Positions 43,996-62,465 are shown, counted from the stretch's first letter. The stretch: DNA of 64,000 bases from a candidate division WWE3 bacterium (GCA_052035175.1 JBPOHV010000001.1:772228-836227); one strand, 5' to 3'. Made by a program: numbers and translations. Notes: generated by a model not told the origin, from the letters alone.

Positions 43996-46059
43996 TCAAA
44001 GTACATCCGCCATTTTTAGTGCTGCATGATATACAACTGGCTTTTGACGGACTTCTTGTGTTACTTTATCGACAACTTTTACATAAGTTACCTCTGGTAA
44101 GTTAGCAGATCGACGCAAAGCGTTTACTTCTACCAAATCCCAACCTTGCTCGTCTGAGGCCAACATATATTGGCTCGCGTGCGCTCTCTCACCAACACCA
44201 AGCCTACGTAGATGCCCAGCTCTTGTAAAAGCTATCAAAGTGTCTTCTTCTTCTTTAGTTTTTTTCCCTCTTCCATAATTAATATTTAGATCTGTGGCTT
44301 CATTGCATGTAATTTCAGCTAAATGTGCTAAAACCATAACTTCAAACCAATTAGTATTATCATTGTATGCACCATATCTAGACATATCTTTACGAGTTTG
44401 TGGATCTAATAGTTTCTTATGTTTATCTAATAAAAGTCGTATTGTGCATTTACCTACGGCTACATCTACAATATATTCAGATTTAGTTTTGCCATTAAAT
44501 TTATAAGTTATTGATGAATAACCCAGACCACGTAAGCTTTGATCCCCTATCTCGCATTGCGTGCCACGAGGACTTATAGATCTACGAAAGTCAATTTTCA
44601 AACGATTTGCAACTTTACCTTTTTTTTCTACTAAATCTGTTGGTAATGATTCGGGTGACAACCAATTTATACATGTCGCGACTTCGGCACTTTTCAACAC
44701 AGGATTATCAGTTTGCCTTTCGAGATTTGCAAGTACAAGGCCTCTAAAATATCCGTGTTGTTCTTCGGGGTGTAACTTTTTATCTGGTACATGTATAACA
44801 GTAGGTTCACCAGGCAAAGTCAAAAAAACATGAGCATTCAAACCTTTTTGCCTAGAAAATCTCCCATAGTCTGCATATATCATTTCCCTAAGAGAGCCAA
44901 TATTTGTAGATATAACATTATATGGAAAAACATTTCTTTCTTCATCTGGAATTTCTGTAAGCGCTGTCGAGTCTTCGTCACCATAAAATAATGCTAAAGC
45001 AGCAAGGCGGCGTTCAAGTACAGCGCGTTGCCTACGATCTGAAATTGTATCTAGAAGGTTACGTGCGTGTATTTCTTTTGATAACATGCCTATCGTTTTA
45101 ATATTTCCAGATGGGTTACTAGAATCATCAAATGCAAGGGTGTCTGGGTGCACGAGACTAAACTTTTCTGAATTTAAGCGCTGTGCAACTAAGGGTTGTA
45201 ATGTCTTAATAATATAATTATAAGCTGGATCAGCGTCTAGCATTTTTGTGACTGCCTTTTTACGCTTGTTTCTCCACTCATTATGGTTATCTGGTGTATA
45301 TAACTTTCCATACCAATCACAAAATAATTCGACTTCGGAATATTTTTTAAAAATCTCATCATTAGCAGATAGAAAACCATTAGCAAAATTTAATCTATAA
45401 GCATTTGCAGAATTACCAATCGTTATATCGCTATTACTACACAATATATTCAATACATATGCAATCTTTGCAGCGTCACCGTCGTCCAAACCCACTTCTG
45501 CTAATAAATAAGATGTCTCTACTACGTGTTTAGTTTGTTCTATCTGATTACCTTTTGGCTCACGCGAAAGTAAACCTTTCAAAATCGCATGGCTATATTT
45601 AGAATGCAATGAGTTTGCTGTAGCAGATGTGATTAAATCTAAAGCTCTTTCTTGTGTAAGAGGTAAGCTTTGCAAACTACTCTTTTCTGCAACACGTAAC
45701 AAAGAATTATGTATAGAACTACGCATGCTATTAATTAATTTTGATGTTTCCGGATTTAATTGGGCAATTTCTTCTAAATTTCTAAAAACCCCAGGCAAAA
45801 GTTGGGAATTATTAATTAATGTTGTAGATACTGAGTTAGTAACTGCCTCCATACGAGCTTTATCACCCAAAGCCGCACTATAATCTGCACATAAATTGGT
45901 CGTCAATAAATATGCCTGTTGATCTAAGCTACTATCGTCGTTAAAAACGGATTCATTTGAGGACATGGGCATACCTGCATAAGCATTACCTTTAGTTCCG
46001 CGGTTTTTACCTTTTAATTTTTCTTCTTCTGGAAAATAAGGGATATCTTCAAAGTGCAT
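43996..46059 (-). CDS. Hypothetical large protein (687 aa).
   Basis: Long ORF. No family recognised. Immediately downstream of the small RHH gene. Confidence 0.5.
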   Translation of the reverse strand: MHFEDIPYFPEEEKLKGKNRGTKGNAYAGMPMSSNESVFNDDSSLDQQAYLLTTNLCADYSAALGDKARMEAVTNSVSTTLINNSQLLPGVFRNLEEIAQLNPETSKLINSMRSSIHNSLLRVAEKSSLQSLPLTQERALDLITSATANSLHSKYSHAILKGLLSREPKGNQIEQTKHVVETSYLLAEVGLDDGDAAKIAYVLNILCSNSDITIGNSANAYRLNFANGFLSANDEIFKKYSEVELFCDWYGKLYTPDNHNEWRNKRKKAVTKMLDADPAYNYIIKTLQPLVAQRLNSEKFSLVHPDTLAFDDSSNPSGNIKTIGMLSKEIHARNLLDTISDRRQRAVLERRLAALALFYGDEDSTALTEIPDEERNVFPYNVISTNIGSLREMIYADYGRFSRQKGLNAHVFLTLPGEPTVIHVPDKKLHPEEQHGYFRGLVLANLERQTDNPVLKSAEVATCINWLSPESLPTDLVEKKGKVANRLKIDFRRSISPRGTQCEIGDQSLRGLGYSSITYKFNGKTKSEYIVDVAVGKCTIRLLLDKHKKLLDPQTRKDMSRYGAYNDNTNWFEVMVLAHLAEITCNEATDLNINYGRGKKTKEEEDTLIAFTRAGHLRRLGVGERAHASQYMLASDEQGWDLVEVNALRRSANLPEVTYVKVVDKVTQEVRQKPVVYHAALKMADVL

Positions 46060-46094: not shown

Positions 46095-46208
46095 TTAAAG
46101 TAGTATTTTTTTCAAAGCTTTTTCGACAACATCTTGTAAAGTCATATCATGCTCAATTGCATACAACTGAGCGAGCTTTTTTACTGTGCTATCAAGCATA
46201 ATAGTCAT
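46095..46208 (-). CDS. Small ribbon-helix-helix (CopG/antitoxin-like) protein; first gene of a four-gene operon.
   Basis: ATG at 46208 with AAGGTGA SD. MTIMLDSTVKKLAQLYAIEHDMTLQDVVEKALKKILL has a beta-strand/helix/helix pattern typical of RHH. Confidence 0.5.
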   Translation of the reverse strand: MTIMLDSTVKKLAQLYAIEHDMTLQDVVEKALKKILL

Positions 46209-46442
46209 CTTCACCTTCGAACTATTTGCAGGTAATTTAAAAATTACCGAGTTAGATTTTCTTTTAGTCACAGCCACAAATACAGTATAACCGTATATAC
46301 GGATTGCCGCAAGTCTGTATAAATAGACAACGCACATTGGAATCACCGCTGGTTTTTCTTTTGTTGCTTCAGTAAGAGAACAAATTTTCTAACGTACATA
46401 GCTTGTAAAGTTTTTTTTATGATTTAGTATTTGATCTAAGAT

Positions 46443-46480
46443 ACATGCTTCTGCTGTCCAGAAGCATGTGCGCTTTTTGT
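46443..46480. repeat. Perfect hairpin (11-bp stem) plus T-tract, followed to 46560 by further nested inverted repeats.
   Basis: acatgcttctgc-tgtc-cagaagcatgt then gcgcttttt. Further on, gaaaaacgccc...ggagcgtttttc. Confidence 0.5.
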
Positions 46481-46569
46481 ATCGCTTTGGCGGTACGGAA
46501 ATTATCGAAAAACGCCCTGTACAAGACGCTTTATATGTCGCTTGCAACGGAGCGTTTTTCTTTTTGTGT

Positions 46570-46977
46570 CTAAAGGGACAGTCCTAAATCGTCCCTTCTA
46601 TTCTTTTCAAAATAGTTTCTAATAGTTGTTAAATCCTCTAGTGAGGCCAATAAACGTGCTTTGTATCTTCCTTGAAACAAGTGTCCTACTCTCCCATATT
46701 TATAATTAAAATATAAAACGTACCTGATACAAACTGATCGCATCATTTTTTCTATATCTCTTTCTTTATTTTGAAAAATTAATAAATGAAAATGATTTTT
46801 TACATAAACATGATCTAGCAAAAGAACATTGTTCTTATTAACAGCAGCAAATAAATATTTATGAAAGACAAAATAATCTTTTTCCTCCAAAAATATATCT
46901 CGCTTCTCTACACCACGATTATAAATATGATAATAGCTTTCACATACATATTTTTTTAATATATTTTTACCAGGCAT
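46570..46977 (-). CDS. REP-associated tyrosine transposase (RAYT) / IS200-like Y1 HuH transposase, paralogue 1.
   Basis: 135 aa. YHIYNRGVEKR...NHFHLLIF (HuH) ... GRVGHLFQGRYKARLL (catalytic Tyr). The last codons DDLGLSL* are encoded by the REP. Confidence 0.75.
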   Translation of the reverse strand: MPGKNILKKYVCESYYHIYNRGVEKRDIFLEEKDYFVFHKYLFAAVNKNNVLLLDHVYVKNHFHLLIFQNKERDIEKMMRSVCIRYVLYFNYKYGRVGHLFQGRYKARLLASLEDLTTIRNYFEKNRRDDLGLSL

Positions 46978-47115
46978 AACCCAAATCTATACCTAAGATA
47001 AATTTTTTCCAGAATCAAATTTCTAGTAAAAATAGAATATACAGGGACAGTCCCTAAAGTAAGCCAAAACAAGGCTAAAACATTACATTGAAAGGGTCCG
47101 TTTAGGACTGTCCCT
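46571..47115 (-). mobile_element. RAYT/IS200-like unit 1: Y1 HuH transposase gene flanked by cognate REP-like palindromes.
   Basis: Left REP gggacagtcctaaatcgtccc (46574-46594). Right REPs agggacagtccctaaag (47043-47059) and inverted tttaggactgtccct (47101-47115). Confidence 0.7.
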
Positions 47116-47129
47116 ATGCTACACTTGTC

Positions 47130-48116
47130 TTGATGGCAAAGAAAAATTTTGTTGTTGATTCAACAAAAAAACTAGAAAAAGATGAAGTGCACGAACTAGC
47201 GCGTGAGGAAGTACCACTAGTCCTCAAATTGCTTATTGCGCTTTTATGCACAATATTGGGATTCAACTTCGCAAATGGTGAATTTTTTGCACTATTCCCT
47301 CTATTTGGTTCTGTACTATTGAGTGAGATCTTATTTTCAGCTCTAGCAGGTGGATTTGGATATTTCGTAATACCAGTTGTATATATAACAGCTAAATACG
47401 CACTATACAGATTTATATTTGAAGTCGTAAGCGACATCGTCTCTAATTTTTGGGAACAACAAACAAAGCGTATGCATGAAGTACGAAGACTAAAACAAAA
47501 AGAAAAGGCTAAAAAGCTCAAAGAAGATATTTCTGGTGGTACAGTGCTAGACACATCGGTACTTGTCGACGGAAGAATTTCTGATATAACACGCTTGGGA
47601 TTCATTCCTAGAAAACTCATTATACCAACACCGGTAATGTCTGAACTTCATCTTATTTCTGACAGCGAAGACAATTTAAAAAGACAAAAGGGCCGCCGTG
47701 GACTAGATACAGTCAATCTGTTACGCAAAGAAAAAGATCACTTACTACTCTTTCCAGAATTTACTGGCAAAACAAGCCTAGTTGATAAAACACTTGTTGA
47801 ATTTTGCAAAAAACATAAATTGGGCCTTATGACTTTGGATTTTAATCTAAATAAGTTAGCTGCTACACAAGGTATAAAGATACTTAATATCAATGAGTTA
47901 GTTGAAGTGATAAAGTCGAAATATTTACCGGGCGAAAAATTTATAATCAAAATATTACAAGAAGGAAAAGAAGATAATCAAGGCGTTGGATATTTGGAAG
48001 ACGGGACTATGATAGTAGTAGAAGAAGCAAAAGATAAAGTTGGCCAAGAACTTGAAGTCACAGTAAAAAAAGTTATACAAGGGCCTGCTGGCAAAATGCT
48101 TTTTTGCAAGCTGTAA
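47130..48116 (+). CDS. PIN plus TRAM domain membrane-associated protein (YacL-like).
   Basis: N-terminal TM helices. PIN: VLDTSVLVDGRISDI...IIPTPVMSEL. C-terminal TRAM: GEKFIIKILQEGKEDNQGVGYLEDGTMIVVEEAKDKVGQELEVTVKKVIQ. Confidence 0.7.
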   Translation: MMAKKNFVVDSTKKLEKDEVHELAREEVPLVLKLLIALLCTILGFNFANGEFFALFPLFGSVLLSEILFSALAGGFGYFVIPVVYITAKYALYRFIFEVVSDIVSNFWEQQTKRMHEVRRLKQKEKAKKLKEDISGGTVLDTSVLVDGRISDITRLGFIPRKLIIPTPVMSELHLISDSEDNLKRQKGRRGLDTVNLLRKEKDHLLLFPEFTGKTSLVDKTLVEFCKKHKLGLMTLDFNLNKLAATQGIKILNINELVEVIKSKYLPGEKFIIKILQEGKEDNQGVGYLEDGTMIVVEEAKDKVGQELEVTVKKVIQGPAGKMLFCKL

Positions 48117-48178
48117 ACTTGCAAAACCTCTTTTTTACAGGCTGTAAACTTGCAGAACTTCCTTTTTACAAGTTCTAG
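48100..48178. terminator. Tandem near-repeated hairpin units of about 32 bp between the convergent PIN-TRAM and radA genes.
   Basis: ttgcaagctgtaaacttgcaaaacctcttttttac / aggctgtaaacttgcagaacttcctttttac, each with the stem-loop gcaag-ctgtaaa-cttgc and a T-run. Confidence 0.55.
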
Positions 48179-49506
48179 GGTGATAAGCTTTTTTTGATAG
48201 CATCTGGCAAAGAAGAAACCGTATCAGAAGAAACTACACGTGAAAATCCTAGTTTTTTGGCTTCTTTGATGCGCTTTTCGATATGAGATATTTTGCGTAA
48301 CTCACCTCCCAAACCACATTCACCAAATGCGCATATACCATCTTTTAAAGCAATGTCTTTAATAGAAGAAGCAACCGACAAACACACAGCCAAATCTGCT
48401 GCATACTCTGAAATATTAAACCCACCTACTACGTTTAGATATACATCATAGCTGCTTACAGGAACTCCACAGCGTCTTTCGAGTATAGCTAAGAGTACTT
48501 GTAATCTATTTGCGCTAAAACCGCTGGTACGTCTTACTGGATAACCGTAACTAGTTTTTACAGTGAGCGCTTGTATCTCAAACAAGATAGGACGAAAACC
48601 TTCCATAGTAACTGTAATACATGAGCCAGGTCGATTTTTATAATTTTCCAAAAATACTTGTGACGGATTTTCTACTTGCACCATACCTTCATTTTTCATT
48701 TCAAAAACCCCAACCTCAGAAACTGCGCCAAATCTATTTTTACTGGTTTTGAGAATTCTAAATATATTTTGTGTATCACCTTCCAAAATAAGTACTGTGT
48801 CTACTATGTGCTCCAGAACTTTTGGTCCGGCAACTTCGCCTTCTTTAGTCACATGGCCTACCAATACAAACGGAACATGAATCCGTTTGGCCACTTGAGT
48901 AAACAACTGAGCACAGTTGCGAAGTTGCCCAACAGAACCAGCCATGCCACTAAGACCATCGGCACTAAACATTTGTATAGAATCAATTATTACCAAATTG
49001 ATATCGTCTTTTTCTACATTACTTTCTATCAAATCACATACACTTTGAGCATTTGTTTCTTGCACAACAAACATATTTTCACCCTTATAACCCAGACGCT
49101 CAGCTCTAATTTTTATTTGCTGCGTGCTCTCTTCTGCAGCTACATACAAAACATTTTTTTGAAGCATTTTGGATATTTCTAACAAAATAGTACTTTTACC
49201 TATTCCAGGTTCTCCAGCTATCAAAATAACTTGACCGGGAACAAATCCCCCACCCAGCACTCTATCTACCTCTGGCATGTTTGAAGAAATACGATCTACT
49301 TTTGTTGATTTTGTTTTTGAAAGAGGTGTTAATTCATAATTTAAATTTGGCCTAGATTTGACAGTCATACTACCACTAGCATTTGTGCTAGAAATTAAAT
49401 TTTCTTCAAATGAATTCCATTCCTGGCATTTTGGACATTGACCAAGCCAACTAGAAGTTTCATAAGAACAATTTTTACAAACAAAAACTTTGCGTATCTT
49501 AGACAT
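48175..49506 (-). CDS. radA: DNA repair protein RadA/Sms.
   Basis: N-terminal zinc ribbon CKNCSYETSSWLGQCPKCQEW, RecA-like GEPGIGKSTILL, and the KNRFG motif. Confidence 0.9.
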   Translation of the reverse strand: MSKIRKVFVCKNCSYETSSWLGQCPKCQEWNSFEENLISSTNASGSMTVKSRPNLNYELTPLSKTKSTKVDRISSNMPEVDRVLGGGFVPGQVILIAGEPGIGKSTILLEISKMLQKNVLYVAAEESTQQIKIRAERLGYKGENMFVVQETNAQSVCDLIESNVEKDDINLVIIDSIQMFSADGLSGMAGSVGQLRNCAQLFTQVAKRIHVPFVLVGHVTKEGEVAGPKVLEHIVDTVLILEGDTQNIFRILKTSKNRFGAVSEVGVFEMKNEGMVQVENPSQVFLENYKNRPGSCITVTMEGFRPILFEIQALTVKTSYGYPVRRTSGFSANRLQVLLAILERRCGVPVSSYDVYLNVVGGFNISEYAADLAVCLSVASSIKDIALKDGICAFGECGLGGELRKISHIEKRIKEAKKLGFSRVVSSDTVSSLPDAIKKSLSP

Positions 49507-49537
49507 ATGACTATCTTAACAAAGAATTCTTAAATAT

Positions 49538-51859
49538 TTATGAATTGATAACTTGTATTTTAATATGATCTTTTATTGCCAGTGCGTTGAGTTTTATCGG
49601 ACGTTTCTTATTTTTCAAAAGAACTTCTGCAATTTTGTCTAGCAATTCTTTTTCGACAGTTCTACGAAGTGCACGTGCACCGTATTCTTTTGAATAACCC
49701 TTTTTCAAAAGCAACTCTTTAGCAGACTTAGCAACCGATAGCGATATGTTTTGTGGTTTCATATTGTCTTTAATTTTTCCTATGAGTAAATCGATTATTC
49801 TAAACTGTGCTTCTTGTTTTAGCTGTTGGAAGTATATGATTTCATCAAATCTATTTATAAGCTCTGGCTTCATTATCTTCTTTAAATTCTGCTCTAATCT
49901 ATCTTTGGGTTCTGCACCAGAATCTGAGTCTATATAAAAACCAATATCAGACTTATGAAAGATTTCTGTACCCAAATTGCTTGTTAGAATAATTACGCTT
50001 CTCGAAAAGTCATACATATGACCTCTAGCATCGAGTAACTCGCCTTCTTCCATGATTTGTAACAGAATATTCAAAACATCAGGATGTGCTTTTTCTATTT
50101 CATCAAACAAAACTACACTGTCAGGTTTGGCAGCAATCTTTGTCGTCAATTCCCCACCTTCGCCAAAACCCACATAACCAGGTGGCGCACCAATAAGTCT
50201 TGCAACCATATGCTTTTCTGAAAAATCACTCATGTCCAACCGAATAAGGGCATTCTCACCAAAAAACTCTGTAGAAAGAAGCTTTGCTAACTCAGTTTTA
50301 CCAACACCAGTTGGTCCCAAAAATAAATAACTACTCAATGGCCTATTTCCTGTTTTTAAACCAAGACTTGCGCGAATCATTGCTTTTGAGACTGTATCAA
50401 CAGCAGCATCTTGACCTATCAACTGTGATTTTATCCGATCTGATAGATTTGCAACTCTTGAAAGCCTATACTTTGCCGAAATACCCAAATCACCTTTTAC
50501 CAAAGCATCAACCGCATCATCCACATCTTCCTTGGAAACTACAAACTGCTCTGTTTTTAAAAACTTCACTTCTTGTTTTGATAAAGCATCTTCTGTTTCA
50601 GAAAGTAAAACCTTCAAATCTGCGGCTTTCTCATATTTGCCTGCAGATAACATCGCGTCAATAGAGTCTGCAAGCAACAAAGTCTTGTCTACACTTCTAC
50701 GATAAGTAACAGGTATTTTACTTTTCTTCATAATAGTAAAAGAACAAACTATATCCATCAGATCGACACCTCTTTTGGGAAATTTAGCATCAGATAAAAG
50801 ATTTTCTTCTACAGCATAGTCATAGATGTAATTTGTCACATCTACCGGGATCTTGAGTTTATGATGCCTTTCTAGTTTTGCAGCTTCTCGCTTCATAATT
50901 AAAAGCGCATCTTTTTTTGTAGGTTCTTCAACATCTATTACTGTAATGTCTTCAAATATATGTTCGTTATCAGAAGAAACGCGTTCATACATTTGATTGC
51001 TCATTGTAGCTACAAACCTTATATCTGCCTGACGCAACATAGCTTTGAATAAGGTATAAAACATAGGAACGGCAAAGGTCCCAGTTGAAGCAAAAAATAC
51101 ATTTGACAAATTTTCGATACTTAAAATTACTCTACCTAACATTCGCAACTCATCGACAAAAGAATACAAGCCCAGCTCTATACCACCACGATTGATAAAT
51201 CCCATCATAAAAGCAAGAAGATCTACTTCAAGCAAACGGTACCCCATTAGTGACGGTGGGACATTTAATAAAACCATATTTTGAGCCAAGAGCTTTATAA
51301 TACTGTCTTTACCTACACCAGGGTCACCTATCAATAAAACATTTGAATTATGCTCTTTCAACAATGCAGAAACTGTATTCAAATATTCTTTACGTTCCAA
51401 GAGTGTTAAATCACCATTATCTAGTTGTCGTGCAGCCTCACGAGTAACATCACGCGTAAAAGTATTTATGATTGGAGTATTTTTATTTATGTTGAAAGAT
51501 CTTAGAGTATTAGAAAATATGTTTAACTTCATGCACTCCAAACGCAACTGTTCATACATATCTTTTTGCTTTGTGATTTTGAATACAGCCAATAATAAAT
51601 GTTCTGTACCTACATACGAATGTTCAAAACTAAGCGCTTGATAAAATGCTTCTTTTATGAGCCTATTTATCTCTACACTGTGTTGTGGGGGGATTGAGAG
51701 TGTCTTTACTTCTTGAAGCATTGCGCTTCCCATTCCACCAGCTGCAATAATTTCTTCAATTAGTACAACAACCGGCACTCTTTCTGTTTTTGGCAATCTA
51801 TCTAAAACACTCTTAGCTCGGTCAGTAAGCCTCTCTGTAAGTACTGCTTCACCTTGCAT
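49538..51859 (-). CDS. clpC: Clp/Hsp100 AAA+ chaperone (ClpC-like) with two nucleotide-binding domains.
   Basis: Clp_N domain. D1 LLIGDPGVGKDSI. D2 FLGPTGVGKTELAKLL...VVLFDEIEKAHPDVLNILLQIMEEGELLD. Confidence 0.8.
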   Translation of the reverse strand: MQGEAVLTERLTDRAKSVLDRLPKTERVPVVVLIEEIIAAGGMGSAMLQEVKTLSIPPQHSVEINRLIKEAFYQALSFEHSYVGTEHLLLAVFKITKQKDMYEQLRLECMKLNIFSNTLRSFNINKNTPIINTFTRDVTREAARQLDNGDLTLLERKEYLNTVSALLKEHNSNVLLIGDPGVGKDSIIKLLAQNMVLLNVPPSLMGYRLLEVDLLAFMMGFINRGGIELGLYSFVDELRMLGRVILSIENLSNVFFASTGTFAVPMFYTLFKAMLRQADIRFVATMSNQMYERVSSDNEHIFEDITVIDVEEPTKKDALLIMKREAAKLERHHKLKIPVDVTNYIYDYAVEENLLSDAKFPKRGVDLMDIVCSFTIMKKSKIPVTYRRSVDKTLLLADSIDAMLSAGKYEKAADLKVLLSETEDALSKQEVKFLKTEQFVVSKEDVDDAVDALVKGDLGISAKYRLSRVANLSDRIKSQLIGQDAAVDTVSKAMIRASLGLKTGNRPLSSYLFLGPTGVGKTELAKLLSTEFFGENALIRLDMSDFSEKHMVARLIGAPPGYVGFGEGGELTTKIAAKPDSVVLFDEIEKAHPDVLNILLQIMEEGELLDARGHMYDFSRSVIILTSNLGTEIFHKSDIGFYIDSDSGAEPKDRLEQNLKKIMKPELINRFDEIIYFQQLKQEAQFRIIDLLIGKIKDNMKPQNISLSVAKSAKELLLKKGYSKEYGARALRRTVEKELLDKIAEVLLKNKKRPIKLNALAIKDHIKIQVINS

Positions 51860-51868
51860 GATTAATTT

Positions 51869-52969
51869 TTAAGCTTTTAATTTTCTTATGCTAAGAGCAA
51901 GCTTTTGACTTGCACCATCAACATTGGTGACTATTGCTTCTACTTCATCACCCACATTTAAAGGTCCTTCGGTTTCAGAGATATGAATAAGACCATCTAA
52001 TCCTTTTTCTAAATTAACAAAAGCACCAAAAGGTACTATCTTGCTAACTTTACCTTTTACAGTTGAATCAACAGGATATCTAGTCTCTACCCCTTCCCAT
52101 GGATTTGGAATAGTACGTTTAACACTAAGCGCTAGTTTTTTTGTATCATCATCAACGCCAAGCACCAAAACACTTATTGTTTGTCCAACAGAAAAGTATG
52201 TGCTAGGATGTGTAACTTTTTCCCAAGCGATTTCACTTATATGAACTAGACCTTCGACACCTTCCAGATCAACGAAAACACCAAAAGGCATTATACCGGT
52301 AACAACTCCATCCAGTGTATCGCCTATTTTAATATCTTTTAATTTTTCCTCTTTTGCTGCTTCTGTATATGTACCCAAAGCTTCTTTTTCAGATAAAACT
52401 AATCGATTTTTCTCTGGGTCAAGTTCAATTACTTTAACCTTGATCATTTTGCCAGTTAATACTTTGAGAGTTTCTTTTAGCTCTGCATCACTACCAGTAG
52501 CCATCTTTGAGCCATCATTAGAGAAATGAACTCTATCTAAGTGAGATAAAGGAACAAAACCTCGCAAGCCTGCACACTCACAGACAAAACCACCTTTATT
52601 ATATTCAAGGATTTCAGCTTCTATAACAGAACCATCTGCATAAGCATCTTCAAGTTCTTTCCATTTCTTTTCTTTATCAGCGCGTTTAACTGACAAAACT
52701 ATATAACCTTGTCTATCTTCAGGCTGAACGACTTTGGCTATAATAGATTGACCTACTTCAAGCGTTTTCGCATCTTCGCCGAATTCTTGCAAAGAAATTA
52801 TTCCTTCAGATTTTGCACCAACATCGACTAAAATCTCCGATGAATTTATACTAACGATCTTACCTTCTATCAATTCTCCTTGCTCTAATAGTCGAATAGA
52901 AACACCCTTATCTTTAAGGATTTCTTCCATTTTTGAACTTGATTTGTGAACTTGTTTGGATTTTGCCAT
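51869..52969 (-). CDS. rpsA: 30S ribosomal protein S1 (multiple S1 domains).
   Basis: Repeated S1 modules (GELIEGKIVSINSSEILVDVG..., DGVVTGIMPFGVFVDLEGVEGLVHISE..., GKVSKIVPFGAFVNLEKGLDGLIHISE). Start moved to MAKSKQ: the track start at 53059 would extend into the REP at 53058. Confidence 0.8.
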   Translation of the reverse strand: MAKSKQVHKSSSKMEEILKDKGVSIRLLEQGELIEGKIVSINSSEILVDVGAKSEGIISLQEFGEDAKTLEVGQSIIAKVVQPEDRQGYIVLSVKRADKEKKWKELEDAYADGSVIEAEILEYNKGGFVCECAGLRGFVPLSHLDRVHFSNDGSKMATGSDAELKETLKVLTGKMIKVKVIELDPEKNRLVLSEKEALGTYTEAAKEEKLKDIKIGDTLDGVVTGIMPFGVFVDLEGVEGLVHISEIAWEKVTHPSTYFSVGQTISVLVLGVDDDTKKLALSVKRTIPNPWEGVETRYPVDSTVKGKVSKIVPFGAFVNLEKGLDGLIHISETEGPLNVGDEVEAIVTNVDGASQKLALSIRKLKA

Positions 52970-53057
52970 AAAATTAAACCTTGTTACTGGATAAATTAAT
53001 AATAAAGAAACATCACCAGCCGATATTTCTTGGTCTGGGGGATTATAGCATATATCC

Positions 53058-53562
53058 AAAGGGCTAGGCCCGGCTTAGCCTTATTCTAAGTTTCTTAGAA
53101 TTTACAATGTTGTCACAACTAGAAAAGTAAATATTATAACCTATATGCCACAACGGAATGTCAAAAAAGTATACCTACCAAACAGCTTTTATCACATATA
53201 CAATCGAGGTGTAGAAAAAAGAGTGATTTTTAATAGTCAAATGGACTTAAATGTATTTGAAAAATATCTTACAGATAGCTTGCTTAAAAACAATATTAAA
53301 ATTTATGAAAAAGCCTTCATGCCAAACCATTATCACTTACTAGTTTTTCAAAAAGAGGCACATGCTATTGAAAAAATGATGCACTCACTTGGTACTAGAT
53401 ATACTATCTACTTCAATATTAGGCATAACAGAACTGGACACTTATTCCAAGGAACCTATAGAGCAAGACTGGTGAATACTGATGGCGATTTTCAAGCGGT
53501 TACAATGTATATAAGAAATCATTACGTAGAAGATGAGGAGGCTAAGCCGGGCCTAGCCCTTT
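53058..53562 (+). mobile_element. RAYT/IS200-like unit 2, flanked by a perfect 23-bp inverted repeat.
   Basis: aaagggctaggcccggcttagcc (53058-53080) and its exact reverse complement ggctaagccgggcctagcccttt (53540-53562). Each arm is itself an imperfect palindrome: ggctaggcc-c-ggcttagcc. Confidence 0.75.
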
Positions 53563-53567
53563 GGTAG
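53145..53567 (+). CDS. RAYT / IS200-like Y1 HuH transposase, paralogue 2.
   Basis: 140 aa. FYHIYNRGVEKR...PNHYHLLVF...GHLFQGTYRARLV. The C-terminal KPGLALW* is encoded by the right REP. Confidence 0.75.
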   Translation: MPQRNVKKVYLPNSFYHIYNRGVEKRVIFNSQMDLNVFEKYLTDSLLKNNIKIYEKAFMPNHYHLLVFQKEAHAIEKMMHSLGTRYTIYFNIRHNRTGHLFQGTYRARLVNTDGDFQAVTMYIRNHYVEDEEAKPGLALW

Positions 53568-53577
53568 TTTGGTAACA

Positions 53578-53715
53578 CTGTCCCGGCGACGACCTATCTT
53601 CCCAGGCATTCTGCCAAGTATTTTCAGCGCTGACGGTCTTGACTTCTCTGTTCGGAATGGACCTCGCCGAAGCGAGTTAAGAGGTATAACCCCGCCGCTA
53701 TCATCACCGAGACAG
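53578..53715 (-). rRNA. rrf: 5S rRNA (with an extra hairpin insertion of about 18 nt).
   Basis: The reverse complement contains ...GGTGATGATAGCGGCGGGG...CCGAACAGAGAAGTCAAGACCGTCAGCGCTG... Helix I is ctgtctcgg paired with ccgggacag. The inserted ctcgcttcggcgag is a UUCG-capped stem. Confidence 0.7.
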
Positions 53716-53784
53716 TATTACCAATAAAGTGTGCTCATTTTGAAATAAACACACTAAAAACTGAATAGAAGACTGTAGTTAGAA

Positions 53785-56862
<3,078 letters not shown>

Positions 56863-57008
56863 ACTACCTTGTTTTACCAAGGTCGAACGTTAAATTCTAA
56901 CTTGCTTCTATTCAGTTCTCAATGTGCTTTACTTCGCAAAGCCGATCTCACAAGCTAGCTTCGCTTTCGCTTAGCCGACCTGATGGTCTAGCTTTACTAA
57001 TCTATTTT

Positions 57009-57084
57009 TGGTGGACCCGACGGGATTCGAACCCGTGACCTCTGCGATGCAAACGCAGCGCTCTACCAACTAAGCTACAGGCCC
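57009..57084 (-). tRNA. tRNA-Ala (anticodon TGC), immediately upstream of 23S.
   Basis: Reverse complement GGGCCTGTAGCTTAGTTGGTAGAGCGCTGCGTTTGCATCGCAGAGGTCACGGGTTCGAATCCCGTCGGGTCCACCA. G3:U70 pair. Confidence 0.85.
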
Positions 57085-57499
57085 ACGAAGTGGGTATGTA
57101 AGAGGAAGTGCAATCCCGCTAAGCAGGATAACCAAGCTCTTCCAAGCCCGTGGTACTAGGTATAGATCTTTCGATCACGCACCCAAGTTTATAGATTATA
57201 GAAATGAAGTTGAGATAGTACAAGGTTTTATCCTATGCATATCTCTAAGAGGAATCTAGAGCTTCTAAATAGACTACATGAAATGCAGTTAAGTGAAGAT
57301 TAGCATTCCCATTCCGTATTGGCATAATACAAAATGCCCTCACCCATGTCAACCTTATTTATTGTTAAAAAATAGCGACTTTTCGTCTATGAGGGAATAC
57401 ATAAAAAATCCAAGCAAAGAAATAAAAATAAATAATGCAGAACCCACTATATATATCCAACCTATTACTGTAGTTTTCATATGTAAACTATGACTATTT

Positions 57500-58627
57500 T
57501 CAATCGCCATCCTCGACAATTTCAGCCTCAAGGGGACCAAAAAGATGCGCGTGGTGAGTAGTAAACCAGCTACGAGCAGACTCAACCTTTTCCCCAATTT
57601 GTGCTACGGCATCCATATCTGAACCAGCGTTGTCAATTAAACCTTTTGCATAAACATCCAGTATTTCTTCCAATGTATTTATCGCTTGCATATAGTCTCC
57701 TTTTGCCAACTCATTAATACGGTGTACTATTTGAGCCTCTTTCTTTATAAAAGCGTCGTCTGGGGTTGGTGGCTTCGAAGCTTGTGTCTCTGCTTTAGCA
57801 GCTGGCGCTCTAGCTGGTTGAACTGGCGTCTCTGGAATACCGTTGGAAGCTCTTGAATCATAGACTAAATCACTAAATGCACCTGCCTTGGCAAGTTTCT
57901 CTGCATCTGCATTCATTTTCAAATATCTAAGTAAGTAAGCATAGCCGTCTTTATATAATGCACGAGCCAGTAAAAACTTGGCATCCGCATACTCTTTTAT
58001 TTTTTCAGGAGTATTATGGCTTGCAGCAAGTGCGGACAAATACTCATCCATATGGGCCACAAATTTAACAGGCGAGGGAAATTTTTTAAAAACTTTGGTC
58101 AGATGTCCAGGGCTAATAATCGATTCTTTTAGACCATGTGCTTTCTTCTCGGAATATGCAGTATTGAGCCTTGTTGCAAGAGGTAACGCATCGTCGGCAC
58201 ATGCAGCAAGCAACAATACCTGCGCACGACGATTGATATCCAGCTCAGTACCTTTACCAGAGATGACCTTACGCCACTTAGACTTCTCCGGTGTGTAAGT
58301 TATCTCATCGATAATTGTTTTTGGTTTATATACCTCAGCACACGCATTTGTAATAAAACGCTCCATACCTTTCTTGTACCGACCCTTATGTAGATTGAAG
58401 TAAAAACGCATATTCGCCCGCGGATTTACATTTGGCCTTAGTGTGTCACCAACACCACTTATACCCGCATCCTTAAGTTCATTATCAATATGTTGTATAC
58501 GTTCGGGGTCTAGTAATGCAGTTTGCTCAGCAATAGCACTTTCCAATGCGCTACTATAAGCCGCTTCTACTGTCTTAGGTGTGGTTTCTAAATCGTTCGG
58601 TACCCTATTAATTCCTGCCATATGCAT
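57500..58627 (-). CDS. Hypothetical protein (375 aa) located between tRNA-Ala and tRNA-Ile.
   Basis: Long ORF with protein-like composition. No family recognised. Confidence 0.45.
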   Translation of the reverse strand: MHMAGINRVPNDLETTPKTVEAAYSSALESAIAEQTALLDPERIQHIDNELKDAGISGVGDTLRPNVNPRANMRFYFNLHKGRYKKGMERFITNACAEVYKPKTIIDEITYTPEKSKWRKVISGKGTELDINRRAQVLLLAACADDALPLATRLNTAYSEKKAHGLKESIISPGHLTKVFKKFPSPVKFVAHMDEYLSALAASHNTPEKIKEYADAKFLLARALYKDGYAYLLRYLKMNADAEKLAKAGAFSDLVYDSRASNGIPETPVQPARAPAAKAETQASKPPTPDDAFIKKEAQIVHRINELAKGDYMQAINTLEEILDVYAKGLIDNAGSDMDAVAQIGEKVESARSWFTTHHAHLFGPLEAEIVEDGD

Positions 58628-58705
58628 ATAATTCTAGTTAAAACTTAAGATATAAACAAGCTGTAAAAATAAATTTCTATGTTAAAATTCAAAATGTCTA
58701 CGTTT

Positions 58706-58782
58706 GGGTGATTAGCTCAGGTGGTTAGAGCATTCCTCTGATAAGGGAAAGGTCCGTGGTTCGAGTCCACGATCACCCACCA
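58706..58782 (+). tRNA. tRNA-Ile (anticodon GAT), on the opposite strand to the rRNA genes.
   Basis: GGGTGATTAGCTCAGGTGGTTAGAGCATTCCTCTGATAAGGGAAAGGTCCGTGGTTCGAGTCCACGATCACCCACCA. Anticodon loop CTGATAA. Confidence 0.85.
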
Positions 58783-58783
58783 T

Positions 58784-59227
58784 TTACCAAAGGACCTGGT
58801 CAGACCAGGTCTCGAACTCGGAATTATTATGGTTTTTTATATAAGCAGATACCGACTCAAAATCTCTTTGCGAATTCACTAATCTAGCACGATAGGGACC
58901 TTGGAATAAGTGGCCAACCCTATTATATTTCAAATTGAAAAACATAGTGTATCTTAATCCCACAGAATGCATCGCGCGCGTTATCGACATTGAGTCATTT
59001 TGAAAAATTAAAATGTGGTAATGATTAGGCATTAAAGCCTTTTCATATATCCGCATATTTTCTTTATTTACAGCGCACGATAAGTAATATTCGAATATAT
59101 CCATGTCTGCTTGAGTTGTAAATATAGGTCTTTTTTCTACACCACGATTGTATATATGATAAAAACTGGCAGGCAAATAGACTTTTCTTACATTCTTCTG
59201 AGCCATAACAAGTGAATAATAAAACAA
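58784..59227 (-). CDS. RAYT / IS200-like Y1 HuH transposase, paralogue 3.
   Basis: 147 aa. FYHIYNRGVEKR...PNHYHILIF...GHLFQGPYRARLV. The C-terminal SDQVLW* is encoded by the REP. The stop lies 2 nt from the tRNA-Ile 3' end. Confidence 0.75.
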   Translation of the reverse strand: MFYYSLVMAQKNVRKVYLPASFYHIYNRGVEKRPIFTTQADMDIFEYYLSCAVNKENMRIYEKALMPNHYHILIFQNDSMSITRAMHSVGLRYTMFFNLKYNRVGHLFQGPYRARLVNSQRDFESVSAYIKNHNNSEFETWSDQVLW

Positions 59228-59289
59228 GAGTTGTTAATAACAAGGATATAAATTCCAGAAATACTAGACCTGGTCTGACCAGGTCCCTA
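58789..59289 (-). mobile_element. RAYT/IS200-like unit 3, flanked by inverted copies of a palindromic REP.
   Basis: aaaggacctggtcagaccaggtctc (58789-58813) and agacctggtctgaccaggtcccta (59266-59289). The core gacctggtc-a-gaccaggtc is self-complementary. Confidence 0.75.
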
Positions 59290-59290
59290 A

Positions 59291-60061
59291 CTAAATCCCT
59301 AAAAAATTCATAACCAAAAACCTTACAACCAACGGACCCATTCCACCAGGTGACGTCGCTACCAGACCCAAATGTGCTGTTTTGCTAGTCAGATCAAAAT
59401 CACCAACAGTTTTCCCATTAACCACACTAGAACCAAAATCTACAACACAAGTGTTTTCAGACAACATATCCCCCTTTATCAACGATGGTATTCCCGCAGC
59501 ACAAACAACTAAATCTGTATGTATAAAGGTACCCGAACTATAATTATTAACTGTATTAACAACCACGTTATTATCTTTTAAAAAGTTTGTTACTGGTAAT
59601 CCAACTAAAGCCCCATCGCCAATTACAGTAGCTGATTTTATCCTATCACAGCAACTATGAAACAAAGAAAAAGCACGTATAACCGGAGATATAAATTTAT
59701 TAGTTTTTTTGTTTAAAGCGTCAATATCCTTTTCTTCAGGTATTAAGTCTATTAAGGAGTACAAACTTTGTCTTGGCAAAGGCATTTGTATGATCAACCC
59801 AGTAATTTTTGTGTCACCCATTATTTTTTTGCACTCAGAAATTATTTCAACATCTGCCAATGCACTGGAAATCCTGAATATATGACAATCTATGCCTAAC
59901 TTAAAGCAAAGGCTTTGTTTCAAAGATATATATTTATCTGAAACCTGATTCTCACCTATTTGTATGATTCCAAGAATTCCAATATTCTTAGAATTTTCTA
60001 AGAATTTAGACATTGATAAGTCTAGTAAGTCTTTATATTTTTGTGTTGGAAATAAATTCAT
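59291..60061 (-). CDS. folD: Bifunctional methylenetetrahydrofolate dehydrogenase/cyclohydrolase.
   Basis: ATVIGDGALVGLPVTNFL...DLVVCAAGIPSLIKGDML...VVDFG...VGDFD...SPGGMGPLVVRFLVMN. Confidence 0.8.
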   Translation of the reverse strand: MNLFPTQKYKDLLDLSMSKFLENSKNIGILGIIQIGENQVSDKYISLKQSLCFKLGIDCHIFRISSALADVEIISECKKIMGDTKITGLIIQMPLPRQSLYSLIDLIPEEKDIDALNKKTNKFISPVIRAFSLFHSCCDRIKSATVIGDGALVGLPVTNFLKDNNVVVNTVNNYSSGTFIHTDLVVCAAGIPSLIKGDMLSENTCVVDFGSSVVNGKTVGDFDLTSKTAHLGLVATSPGGMGPLVVRFLVMNFLGI

Positions 60062-60099
60062 ACAAAGCCTATTTTAGCACTTAAGAGTGATAAAATTGC

Positions 60100-60591
60100 T
60101 TGAGCTTGTTTATGAAAAATAAATTAGAAAAGTTAAATCGAACTAAATTTGTTGTATTAATGACTTTCTTGGCCTTTTTATTGAAAGTTCTGGCATACTT
60201 TATTGCCAATATAATATTTGGTATTTGGCAAAATCCCACTCTAGAAAAACTTATTCAAGATACAAATGTACAACCTAACATCATGACTTTGATAATCTCT
60301 GGAATCATAATTGCACCAATTATTGAAACGGTTGTTGGACAACTTATACCTATCAAAATAACCAGCCTTTTCACAAAAAAGACTAGCATCAACCTGATTA
60401 TATCTGTAATAGTATTTTCTGGATTACACGACTACAGTAATATCCTCACAGGAATTGGCGTAGGTACAATACTCGCATACTCATATCTATTAAAACTAAA
60501 AATTTCTGAAAAAGAAGCCTTTTTTACAACTACTGCAATACACCTATTACATAATCTTATCGCAGTAATCTTATTAATAATATTTATGTGA
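60100..60591 (+). CDS. CPBP-family (CAAX protease / Abi-like) intramembrane metalloprotease.
   Basis: Polytopic, 163 aa. FSGLHD (FxxxH) and HLLHNL (HxxxN) motifs. The EExxxR motif is degenerate (IIETVVGQ). Confidence 0.5.
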   Translation: MSLFMKNKLEKLNRTKFVVLMTFLAFLLKVLAYFIANIIFGIWQNPTLEKLIQDTNVQPNIMTLIISGIIIAPIIETVVGQLIPIKITSLFTKKTSINLIISVIVFSGLHDYSNILTGIGVGTILAYSYLLKLKISEKEAFFTTTAIHLLHNLIAVILLIIFM

Positions 60592-60837
60592 GTGAATTTA
60601 CAAACTGAATCGAAACCTTTAACACAAGAAGAACACTTCGTGCGGAAATTTTTTCTTACTTGCGCAAGAAAGCTTACTTCCAAACTTATCCTTTGCTAAG
60701 CGTAAGGGCAAAGCAATTTATGAGATATGTTCTTAGGATTATCTGAACATAAATTGTATGATCATATTTCGTTGAGCTTCCCCACCGAAGCAGAGCAAGA
60801 CATCAACAAGCAAACATACGTGTTTTTCTCCATTAGA

Positions 60838-62278
<1,441 letters not shown>

Positions 62279-62465
62279 AAGTGTTCTTCTTGTGTTACAA
62301 ATTTCGATTCAGATTTCAAAGTGCGCCTACTAACAATTAGACATATATTAGCAGAGCTAGATCAAGATAACACATCTTACCTAAGGCCACAACCCTGTAT
62401 TTTCTAATAGCATTAGAATTTACAACATTGTGATTTTTTCGACTTAAGTTTAAATGGTAACTTGA

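Follow-up and report, generated by a model that had tools for sequence, protein, structure and literature searches.

Three short Y1/HuH genes with paralogue-specific palindromes in a candidate division WWE3 genome and their relation to the TIRYT/TIRtron class

TIRYT genes carry terminal inverted repeats, many of which contain GGGGWSAS and some of which overlap the 3' end of the gene (Di Nocera et al., 2013, PMC3733652). Proteins of TnpAY1 subclass 2.1, which corresponds to Group 1 of the REP-associated tyrosine transposases (RAYT; REP, repetitive extragenic palindrome) (Bertels et al., 2017, PMC5581495), have a median length of about 238 amino acids, the key motifs NH[YF]H, FQ or W[EQ], a Y[IV]HLNP-type tyrosine motif and SS, and a conserved C-terminal tail domain, and they were reported without REP-like sequences (Quentin et al., 2018, PMC6006769). 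In subclass 2.4, REPs with GT[AG]G tags are inserted in frame between the HuH and Tyr motifs (PMC6006769). Here, three small genes, termed copies 1, 2 and 3, are described from a 64,000-nucleotide stretch of DNA (the window) of a candidate division WWE3 bacterium (GCA_052035175.1, JBPOHV010000001.1:772228-836227). The window has a GC content of about 35% and makes up about 7% of a 925-kb genome (925,229 bp); the palindrome counts given for it cover these 64 kb. In a REPtron-like layout, inverted copies of a paralogue-specific palindrome lie on either side of each gene and its promoter-like site. The three genes are probably ancient, vertically inherited paralogues from a Patescibacteria clade of RAYT-like Y1/HuH single-stranded DNA (ssDNA) endonucleases, reduced to the catalytic core. 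They are a core-only variant of the known TIRYT/TIRtron class and not an entirely new system.

The three open reading frames (ORFs) of the original prediction are present and belong to the Y1/HuH family, as it had proposed. Against Pfam PF01797 (Y1_Tnp), copies 1, 2 and 3 scored 29.3, 47.9 and 47.8 bits respectively, all above the gathering score of 23, and the AlphaFold (AF2) model and Foldseek agree. The proteins are 46–58% identical in pairwise comparison, bearing out the similarity first noticed, and share an N-terminal YHIYNRGVEKR and the HuH motif NH[FY]H[LI]L. A tblastn search of the whole window revealed no fourth gene copy. The mechanical ORF of copy 3 (58784-59227) reaches a TTG at 59227 that had been taken as its start; the ATG at 59206 is most likely the start instead, because it aligns with the MPQRNV of the paralogues and is preceded by a promoter-like site.

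The catalytic tyrosine had been sought in GHLFQGxY. Alignment and modelling place it elsewhere, at Y122 in the motif Y[IF]xx[NH] on the last helix. Y122 is the predicted catalytic residue because, in a profile alignment, its motif (YIRNH; YIxxN) falls on YIESQ of the ISDra2 transposase, the motif that contains the position altered in the Y132F structure 2XO6. Alignments A2 and A3 show no variation at H62 and H64; Y122 is invariant in A3 and present in at least 90% of A2. The tyrosine motifs of the window proteins read YIRNH, YIKNH and YFEKN, so that the residue at Y+4 is H or N. In the AF2 model of copy 2 (pLDDT 85.6), Y122 is carried by helix 113-125, and residues 130-140, the last 11, which are encoded by the palindrome, are disordered. 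With this model, Foldseek retrieved the ISDra2, IS608 and IS200 TnpA structures at E ~1e-6, and the best query-normalized TM-score (TMq) was to the Escherichia coli RAYT, TnpA-REP (4ER8; 0.66, root-mean-square deviation 3.1). A single-sequence search against PDB sequences gave noise only, and a profile search of the same sequences reached ISDra2 TnpA weakly (E 0.006). The proteins are thus predicted, from alignment and model, to have the Y1/HuH fold with its catalytic residues intact. They end 13–18 residues past Y122, without the SS motif and without the C-terminal domain.

The GC-rich, inverted and paralogue-specific palindromes claimed for these genes were confirmed (Table 1). Inverted-repeat scores in the same geometry were 26, 21 and 15, compared with a 99th percentile of 13 and a maximum of 15 at 639 control positions. 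Dinucleotide shuffles of the window gave about zero matches for the copy 2 and copy 3 palindromes, and 1.3 expected versus 5 found for that of copy 1. The perfect repeat of copy 2, first given as 23 bp at 53058 and 53540, is real and measures 26 nt (53056-53081 / 53539-53564). That of copy 3 is 31 nt long with 87% complementarity (58782-58812 / 59266-59296), and that of copy 1 is 15 nt long. A homologue at the locus equivalent to copy 1 (L003; loci of relatives carry L numbers) is 59% identical to copy 1 and has a matching three-site layout. An AGG...CCT foot is common to all three palindromes. The 3' arm encodes the last residues of each protein (GLSL* in copy 1, PGLALW* in copy 2 and DQVLW* in copy 3), as had been predicted, although the C-termini were originally listed in the order copy 2, copy 3, copy 1. 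These palindrome-encoded tails begin 8–10 residues past Y122. Hairpins that follow a gene, namely the copy 3 upstream arm after FolD and the proximal copy 1 palindrome, may double as terminators.

Table 1. Coordinates of the Y1/HuH genes, their palindromes and neighbouring features in the window
Feature	Coordinates	Strand	Details
Copy 1 gene	46570-46977	-	135 amino acids, catalytic core only; HuH at NHFHLL, Tyr in YFEKN; from ORF list
Copy 2 gene	53145-53567	+	140 amino acids; H62-Y-H64, predicted catalytic Y122; between S1 and 5S rRNA
Copy 3 gene	58784-59206	-	140 amino acids; mechanical ORF reaches TTG 59227
Copy 1 3' palindrome/hairpin	46573-46597	-	contains AGGGACAGTCCTAAA (46574-46588); encodes ...DDLGLSL and stop; ssDNA fold -5.7 kcal/mol, z -3.4
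Copy 1 proximal upstream palindrome	47043-47057	+	AGGGACAGTCCCTAA; variant; inverted doublet with 47101-47115; passes terminator-like scan, - strand
Copy 1 distal upstream palindrome	47101-47115	-	exact inverted copy of 46574-46588 (AGGGACAGTCCTAAA); inverted-repeat score 15
Copy 2 upstream arm	53056-53081	+	CCAAAGGGCTAGGCCCGGCTTAGCCT; 26 nt, 100% complementary; ssDNA fold -5.2 kcal/mol, z -0.4
Copy 2 3' arm	53539-53564	-	encodes ...AKPGLALW; abuts TAG stop
Copy 3 3' arm, hairpin	58782-58812	+	GACCTGGTC-N-GACCAGGTC; encodes ...TWSDQVLW and stop; abuts tRNA-Ile 3' end; fold -7.9 kcal/mol, z -2.6
Copy 3 upstream arm	59266-59296	-	directly after FolD stop; terminator-like for FolD; fold -8.0 kcal/mol, z -4.1
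Promoter-like TTGTCA-16-TATTAT, copy 2	53110-53137	+	between upstream hairpin and ATG; 10/12 consensus matches, consensus match only
Promoter-like TTGTTA-16-TATTAT, copy 3	59243-59216	-	ahead of ATG 59206
PIN-TRAM gene	47130-48116	+	
S1 gene	51869-52969	-	
5S rRNA	53581-53711	-	
tRNA-Ile, inverted	58706-58782	+	3' end abutted by copy 3 3' palindrome arm
FolD stop	59291		copy 3 upstream arm directly after
16S rRNA	60837-62279	-	

Relatives of these proteins are numerous. A word-indexed search returned more than 1,200 homologues, nearly all from candidate-phyla-radiation metagenome-assembled genomes (MAGs) and mostly 220–235 amino acids long, and a profile search returned 26,895 cluster representatives at E <= 1e-3, of which 136 also passed E <= 1e-30. 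The homologues in Patescibacteria MAGs, of which there are hundreds, are mostly annotated plainly as 'transposase'; the family, described at first as documented mostly in Proteobacteria, is not rare elsewhere. Text searches of the literature found no description of the TIRYT/TIRtron class in Patescibacteria, a lineage that the published surveys seem not to cover.

The long relatives (200–240 amino acids) contain NH[FY]H, [FY]Q, YIH[KN]NP and an SS motif, followed by the C-terminal domain. Their flanks were surveyed at the best 80 loci from a protein-family scan of genome contigs, almost all from Patescibacteria and with 50% identity in the best match, so that the source genome of the window is not among them, and a close flanking repeat was defined by a score of at least 13, the 99th percentile of the controls. 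A close, locus-specific repeat occurs on both sides of 48/79 long genes, typically 25–100 bp upstream and 0–75 bp past the stop codon. Most of these flanks are AGG-NN-N-NN-CCT palindromes (for example AGGCCAGGCCT, AGGCGACGCCT, AGGTGACACCT, AGGACAGTCCT and AGGTCAGACCT), in which the inner bases are variable yet complementary. Such AGG-palindrome-CCT sites are 11-fold enriched near these genes (1.05 vs 0.095 per kb).

Nearly half of the flanked long genes (22/48) also carry an in-frame copy of the palindrome within the coding sequence. This internal copy begins 5–20 residues past the Tyr motif in 18 of the 22, with 17 of these 18 falling within 5–12 residues; at L012 it lies at the equivalent residue, the Tyr motif having been missed by the pattern used, and in three genes it lies in an N-terminal insert. 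The encoded peptides are of the [KQ]G-x-x-L type. The clearest layout to set beside the window genes is that of L105, where copies of about 30 nt of TTAGCTTCGCAAGGGGACGCCTTGCGAAGCT are found upstream, internally (encoding KLASQGDALRSW) and over the stop codon. The internal copy of L105 corresponds to a low-confidence linker (pLDDT 52–61) between the core and the C-terminal domain, and a hypothetical deletion from the internal to the 3' copy would place TAG immediately behind ...ALRS, the arrangement of the window genes. The closest longer relatives are forms of about 185 amino acids with PGLNLK, encoded by GGTTTAAACC.

Several further features of these loci were recorded. A tRNA gene lies within about 150 bp at 4/60 loci scanned for tRNAs (L002, L007, L017 and L028), which weakly suggests a preference of family members for abutting tRNA genes. 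A second, diverged Y1 paralogue occurs within 2–5 kb at L105 (6700 onward), L011, L026 and L057, and paralogue clustering, as in the window, appears to be common in this clade. At L027 (7204-11277), four exact inverted doublets of the cognate GCGAGGTCTAACCTTTCAC lie within 4 kb of a Saccharimonadales Y1 gene, their members 31–68 bp apart start to start; of two of these doublets, one is 2.7 kb upstream and the other 0.55 kb downstream. Dispersal here, in a family like subclass 2.1, resembles that of REPINs. Downstream of its Y1 gene, at a distance of about 1 kb, L081 (8511-8844; contig labelled Dehalococcoidia) has an array of 10 copies of the Y1-flanking palindrome AAGGTCTCACCTT in alternating orientation, built of tandem units of about 68 bp. 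Many contigs whose Y1 genes are clearly of Patescibacteria type bear the label 'uncultured Gammaproteobacteria' or 'Pseudomonadales' (binchicken, TPA assemblies; for example L006, L009, L016 and L029), and one is labelled Bathyarchaeia; these labels are probably taxonomic mislabels or the result of mis-binning.

The original prediction had named both RAYT and IS200 as the identity of the genes. Membership of the Y1/HuH family stood; the curated models of the two narrower families did not recognize the proteins. The canonical RAYT model of NCBIfam, REP_Tyr_transpos (NF047646), gave 19.9, 34.2 and 34.2 bits against a cutoff of 80; for transpos_IS200 (NF033573), with its cutoff of 55, two of the proteins reached 16 and 12.9 bits and copy 1 was not matched. 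The nearest described class, as judged from sequence, is TIRYT/TIRtron (TnpAY1 subclass 2.1, RAYT Group 1), because the motifs, the alignment and the flanking palindromes fit. A homologue on a Rhodospirillum rubrum plasmid (NHIH, LWQG, YIELNP, WSSY) has AAAGGGGTCAGACCCCTT at -55 and directly past its stop codon, and GGGGWSAS is thus half of a palindrome. In a Legionella plasmid homologue, the 3' repeat extends over the final codons and the stop. The window proteins align with the R. rubrum subclass-2.1-like protein, and the copy 1 core GGGACAGTCC is of the R. rubrum type, its GGGACAG fitting 7/8 positions of GGGGWSAS.

The likeness to TIRYT/TIRtron extends to NH[YF]H and FQ (LFQG) in the window proteins, with YIHxNP and SS in the long relatives; to a locus-specific repeat about 50–90 bp upstream and at or over the stop codon; to inverted repeats (26, 31 and 15 nt) that overlap the 3' end of all three genes; and to the presence of several diverged paralogues per genome with few or no dispersed repeat families. 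Unlike that class, the window proteins are 135–140 amino acids long instead of about 238, lack the SS motif and C-terminal domain, and have a degenerate Tyr motif, and the repeats of the clade are compact palindromes, often with a third in-frame copy at the junction of the core and the C-terminal domain. E. coli TnpA-REP (subclass 2.2; REP and bacterial interspersed mosaic elements) shares the fold, the position of the gene between inverted palindromes and a single-copy-like, vertically inherited state. However, it is only 10% identical in the structural alignment, the NCBIfam score is far under the cutoff, and the window shows neither a 5' GTAG tag on its palindromes nor a high-copy REP population. 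TnpA of IS200/IS605 (IS608, ISDra2) is similar in size and fold and gave the best Foldseek E-values, and the mechanism of that family is hairpin recognition in ssDNA. The window signature is nevertheless Y-x3-[NH] and not Y-x3-Q, there is no tnpB, and there are no near-identical copies within the window. The prediction had also proposed a comparison with the IS200/IS605 ends: those are distinct left and right hairpins on one strand, whereas the window units end in inverted copies of one palindrome. Subclass 2.4 is similar in having a cognate palindrome inside the coding sequence, with the frame kept, in a peripheral or flexible region. In the Patescibacteria clade, however, the main position is 5–12 residues past the Tyr, with a minority in an N-terminal insert, and in the window that position is the end of the gene.

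Evidence for the age of the units comes from relatives with short forms of the gene. The order FolD, Y1 gene, tRNA-Ile (tail to tail) is found at L002 and L090, and S1, Y1 gene, 5S at L004 and L091; at L003, RadA and PIN-TRAM precede the gene, which is followed by a conserved non-coding element and a small ORF. The neighbouring housekeeping proteins at these syntenic loci are 40–67% identical to those of the window. The proportion of synonymous differences (pS) is 0.72–0.80 and thus saturated, and that of non-synonymous differences (pN) is 0.11–0.35; pN and pS are given because dN/dS is not properly estimable with saturated synonymous sites. Since pS is saturated while pN is low, the proteins are under purifying selection. 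The palindromes and hairpins are conserved within each of the pairs L004/L091 and L002/L090 despite randomized neutral sites, and comparison of these sequences shows the window palindromes to be under apparent long-term constraint. Palindrome type is not simply bound to a locus: the core GGGACAGTCC is common to copy 1 and L003, and paired transitions separate GGCTAAGCC-G-GGCCTAGCC, the type of copy 2, from the GGTTAAACC-W-GGTTTAACC of L002, L004, L090 and L091.

More distant relatives provide empty sites. No Y1 gene occurs within ±10 kb at L085, L087 and L088 (RadA 58–60% identical), where PIN-TRAM is directly followed by the conserved non-coding element, and at L085 the 5S gene is followed by S1 after about 210 bp; the units are therefore gained or lost as discrete blocks. 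Within the window there is no sign of current mobility. The elements had been called active or recently active, a view that finds no support in the identities of 46–58%, the three syntenic loci, the synonymous saturation and the lack of dispersed copies in 64 kb. Two small duplications were seen beside Y1 genes in relatives. At L091 (1419-1445), the last ~10 nt of the Y1 gene, with half of the palindrome (GATGACCTAGGTTAAACC), recur beyond the 5S gene, so that direct repeats flank the latter, and at L090 (630-656) an 11-bp tandem duplication, CCCTATGGTAA-tgga-CCCTATGGTAA, lies at the junction of the Y1 stop and tRNA-Ile.

The preferred explanation, that the three genes are old resident paralogues cut back to the core, can be put as a sequence of events. 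The ancestors of the short genes would have been two-domain genes of the WWE3 type that lost the segment from the internal to the 3' palindrome; a stop codon would then directly follow the palindrome, and the protein would end in a short disordered tail whose residues the palindrome prescribes. We infer this origin from sequence, because the internal palindrome of the relatives sits where the window proteins end. By analogy with the biochemistry of IS608 and ISDra2 TnpA and of E. coli TnpA-REP, the protein would bind its cognate palindrome when this folds into a hairpin in DNA that is briefly single-stranded, and would cut and rejoin the DNA beside the hairpin via Y122 and the HuH metal site. 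The units would be kept by selection as residents and would not constitute a spreading repeat family, the only substrates in the 64 kb being the palindromes around each gene.

Several observations weigh against this explanation. Folding as ssDNA, which had been proposed as a check, gave clearly stable hairpins for copy 3 and a moderately stable 3' hairpin for copy 1, but the hairpin of copy 2 was no better than shuffles (z -0.4, +0.2). Hairpin binding and cleavage by the window proteins are predicted by homology, and a palindrome would equally fit the binding of a symmetric dimer to double-stranded DNA. The relationship of short and long forms may also be read as extension instead of deletion. 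Flank orientation in the family is mixed, with inverted copies better at 26 loci, direct copies at 19 and a tie at 8, because many loci carry palindrome doublets; the candidate rule that all family members have inverted flanks was rejected on these counts. Synteny and protein similarity are partly at odds: P0005, of the S1/5S locus, is 58% identical to copy 1 vs 52% to copy 2, and P0002, of the FolD/tRNA-Ile locus, is 61% identical to copy 2 vs 54% to copy 3. Repeated site-specific re-insertion or gene conversion at these loci is therefore possible. Exact dispersed copies and REPIN-like inverted doublets are found in the relatives L027, L048, L024, L032 and L078, and the zero-copy count comes from 64 kb of the 925-kb genome.

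The last two points would suit a canonical REP/REPIN-RAYT system, as originally proposed, in which copies of its own palindrome throughout the genome are mobilized by each protein, none of these dispersed copies happening to fall in the window. The REPtron-like layout agrees with such a system, as do the relatives, in which 28 distant cognate-palindrome sites were counted in 871 kb, including the four doublets within 4 kb at L027 and copies 2–9 kb from the gene at L024, L032, L048 and L078. It is nonetheless distinctly unlikely here. None of the three palindromes was present away from its own gene in the 64-kb window, about 7% of the genome; the RAYT model scores stay at 20–34 bits against 80; and the hairpin foot lacks a 5' GT[AG]G tag, GTAG and GTAA occurring in copies 2 and 3 only as Trp-stop codons 3' of the hairpin. 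A metagenome scan with the copy 3 hairpin matched 11 contigs, all with 60–73% GC and none with a Y1 gene, and these are chance matches. An autonomous insertion sequence of the IS200/IS605 type, or a new IS-like group of hairpin-gene-hairpin units targeting sites next to rRNA and tRNA genes, would account for the IS200-like protein size (135–140 amino acids) and the matching fold, for the absence of units at the PIN-TRAM/non-coding element and 5S/S1 sites of L085, L087 and L088, for the partly incongruent synteny and for the family members that abut tRNA genes. Such an element is improbable, because the transpos_IS200 scores are 13–16 bits against 55, the Tyr motif and the one-palindrome ends are of the wrong kind, the copies are 46–58% identical with saturated synonymous sites, and all three sites are also occupied in relatives whose housekeeping proteins have diverged to 40–67% identity.

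The palindromes could also be ordinary bidirectional terminators or operators unlinked to the Y1 proteins, which would then be decaying relics. In favour of this, the copy 3 upstream hairpin and the proximal copy 1 palindrome follow genes and are picked up by a terminator-like scan, and the proteins no longer have the C-terminal domain. Against this, each gene has one sequence on both sides that differs between paralogues, the pattern recurs in 48/79 relatives, in-frame internal copies included, most arms lack a T-run, and the upstream arm of copy 2, lying between divergent genes, terminates nothing. With the proteins under purifying selection and all catalytic residues intact, this explanation is very improbable. 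A bolder version of the resident-paralogue explanation makes the recognition palindrome an integral part of the gene, with three co-evolving copies: one upstream, one at the stop codon and, between them, one in frame where the core meets the C-terminal domain. Either the enzyme or palindrome-driven recombination would homogenize the copies and could delete the internal-to-3' segment, converting a two-domain gene to a core-only one. In that case, the core-only genes kept near rRNA and tRNA genes would be domesticated hairpin nucleases that serve the host at these loci, and their recombination activity would have left its marks in the inversion of tRNA-Ile, the split of the rRNA operon and the inversion of PIN-TRAM. 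In this full form the proposal is speculative and rather unlikely.

The neighbourhood of the genes is made up of conserved genes, among which each Y1 unit of about 510–545 bp is wedged. The best named relatives of RadA belong to candidate division WWE3 (55–59% identity) and its nearest protein is 60–61% identical, which places the host, by protein sequence, among the Patescibacteria (candidate phyla radiation), with distant relatives. The gene order is 16S, FolD, copy 3, tRNA-Ile (+), a 375-amino-acid ORF, tRNA-Ala, 23S and 5S, followed by copy 2 (+), S1, a ClpC-like gene, RadA, PIN-TRAM (+) and copy 1. The rRNA operon is thus split, its 16S gene and its tRNA-Ala/23S/5S part being separated by FolD, copy 3, the inverted tRNA-Ile and the 375-amino-acid ORF. 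The order FolD, Y1 gene, inverted tRNA-Ile, orf375-like gene also occurs at L090 and partly at L002, and the split arrangement (53581-62279) is therefore ancestral to the group. The two ORFs adjoining Y1 genes, of 687 amino acids (43996-46059, -) and 375 amino acids (57500-58627, -), had no match in Pfam or PADLOC; the latter has a homologue at the equivalent position at L090. PADLOC likewise found no defence-system match for the three Y1 proteins.

PIN-TRAM is inverted relative to RadA in the window, and the two genes are co-directional at L003, L085, L087 and L088. One breakpoint of this inversion coincides with the upstream palindrome doublet of copy 1 (47043-47115), and on the other side (48099-48160) lies a tandem 31-nt repeat holding the hairpin TTGCAAGCTGTAAACTTGCAA. 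The conserved non-coding element (46440-46560, sense on the - strand) has a small RHH-like ORF (46095-46346) on one side and copy 1 on the other; in relatives with an empty site, PIN-TRAM takes the place of copy 1. It is also found at L003 (2400-2530), L085 (12462-12570), L087 and L088. The first of its two hairpins, AAAAACGCTCC...GGGCGTTTTT, has a loop that hardly varies (AAGCGACATAYAAAGCG) and changes that compensate each other (AACATTCC/GGAATGTT); CATGCTTCTGGACAGCAGAAGCATG forms the second. Rfam, in E-value mode, gave no credible family for the region around copy 1, including this element.

To our knowledge, the function of RAYT-like domesticated transposases is still unsettled, even in E. 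coli. The window offers a very small natural system of this kind, with a core of 135–140 amino acids, two cognate palindromes per gene and three specificities in a genome of less than 1 Mb. The new aspects are the inferred loss of a domain at an in-frame palindrome, the three-copy palindrome architecture of the clade and the conserved positions next to rRNA and tRNA genes. Subclass-2.1-like genes, which were reported without REPs, can carry palindromic repeats, and in some genomes these are dispersed. In this clade, the recognition palindrome occupies a fixed position within the coding sequence and changes along with its flanking copies, which bears on the specificity of proteins for hairpins, on how repeat copies stay identical and on domain loss at repeats. 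The TIRYT/TIRtron class is thereby extended to the candidate phyla radiation.

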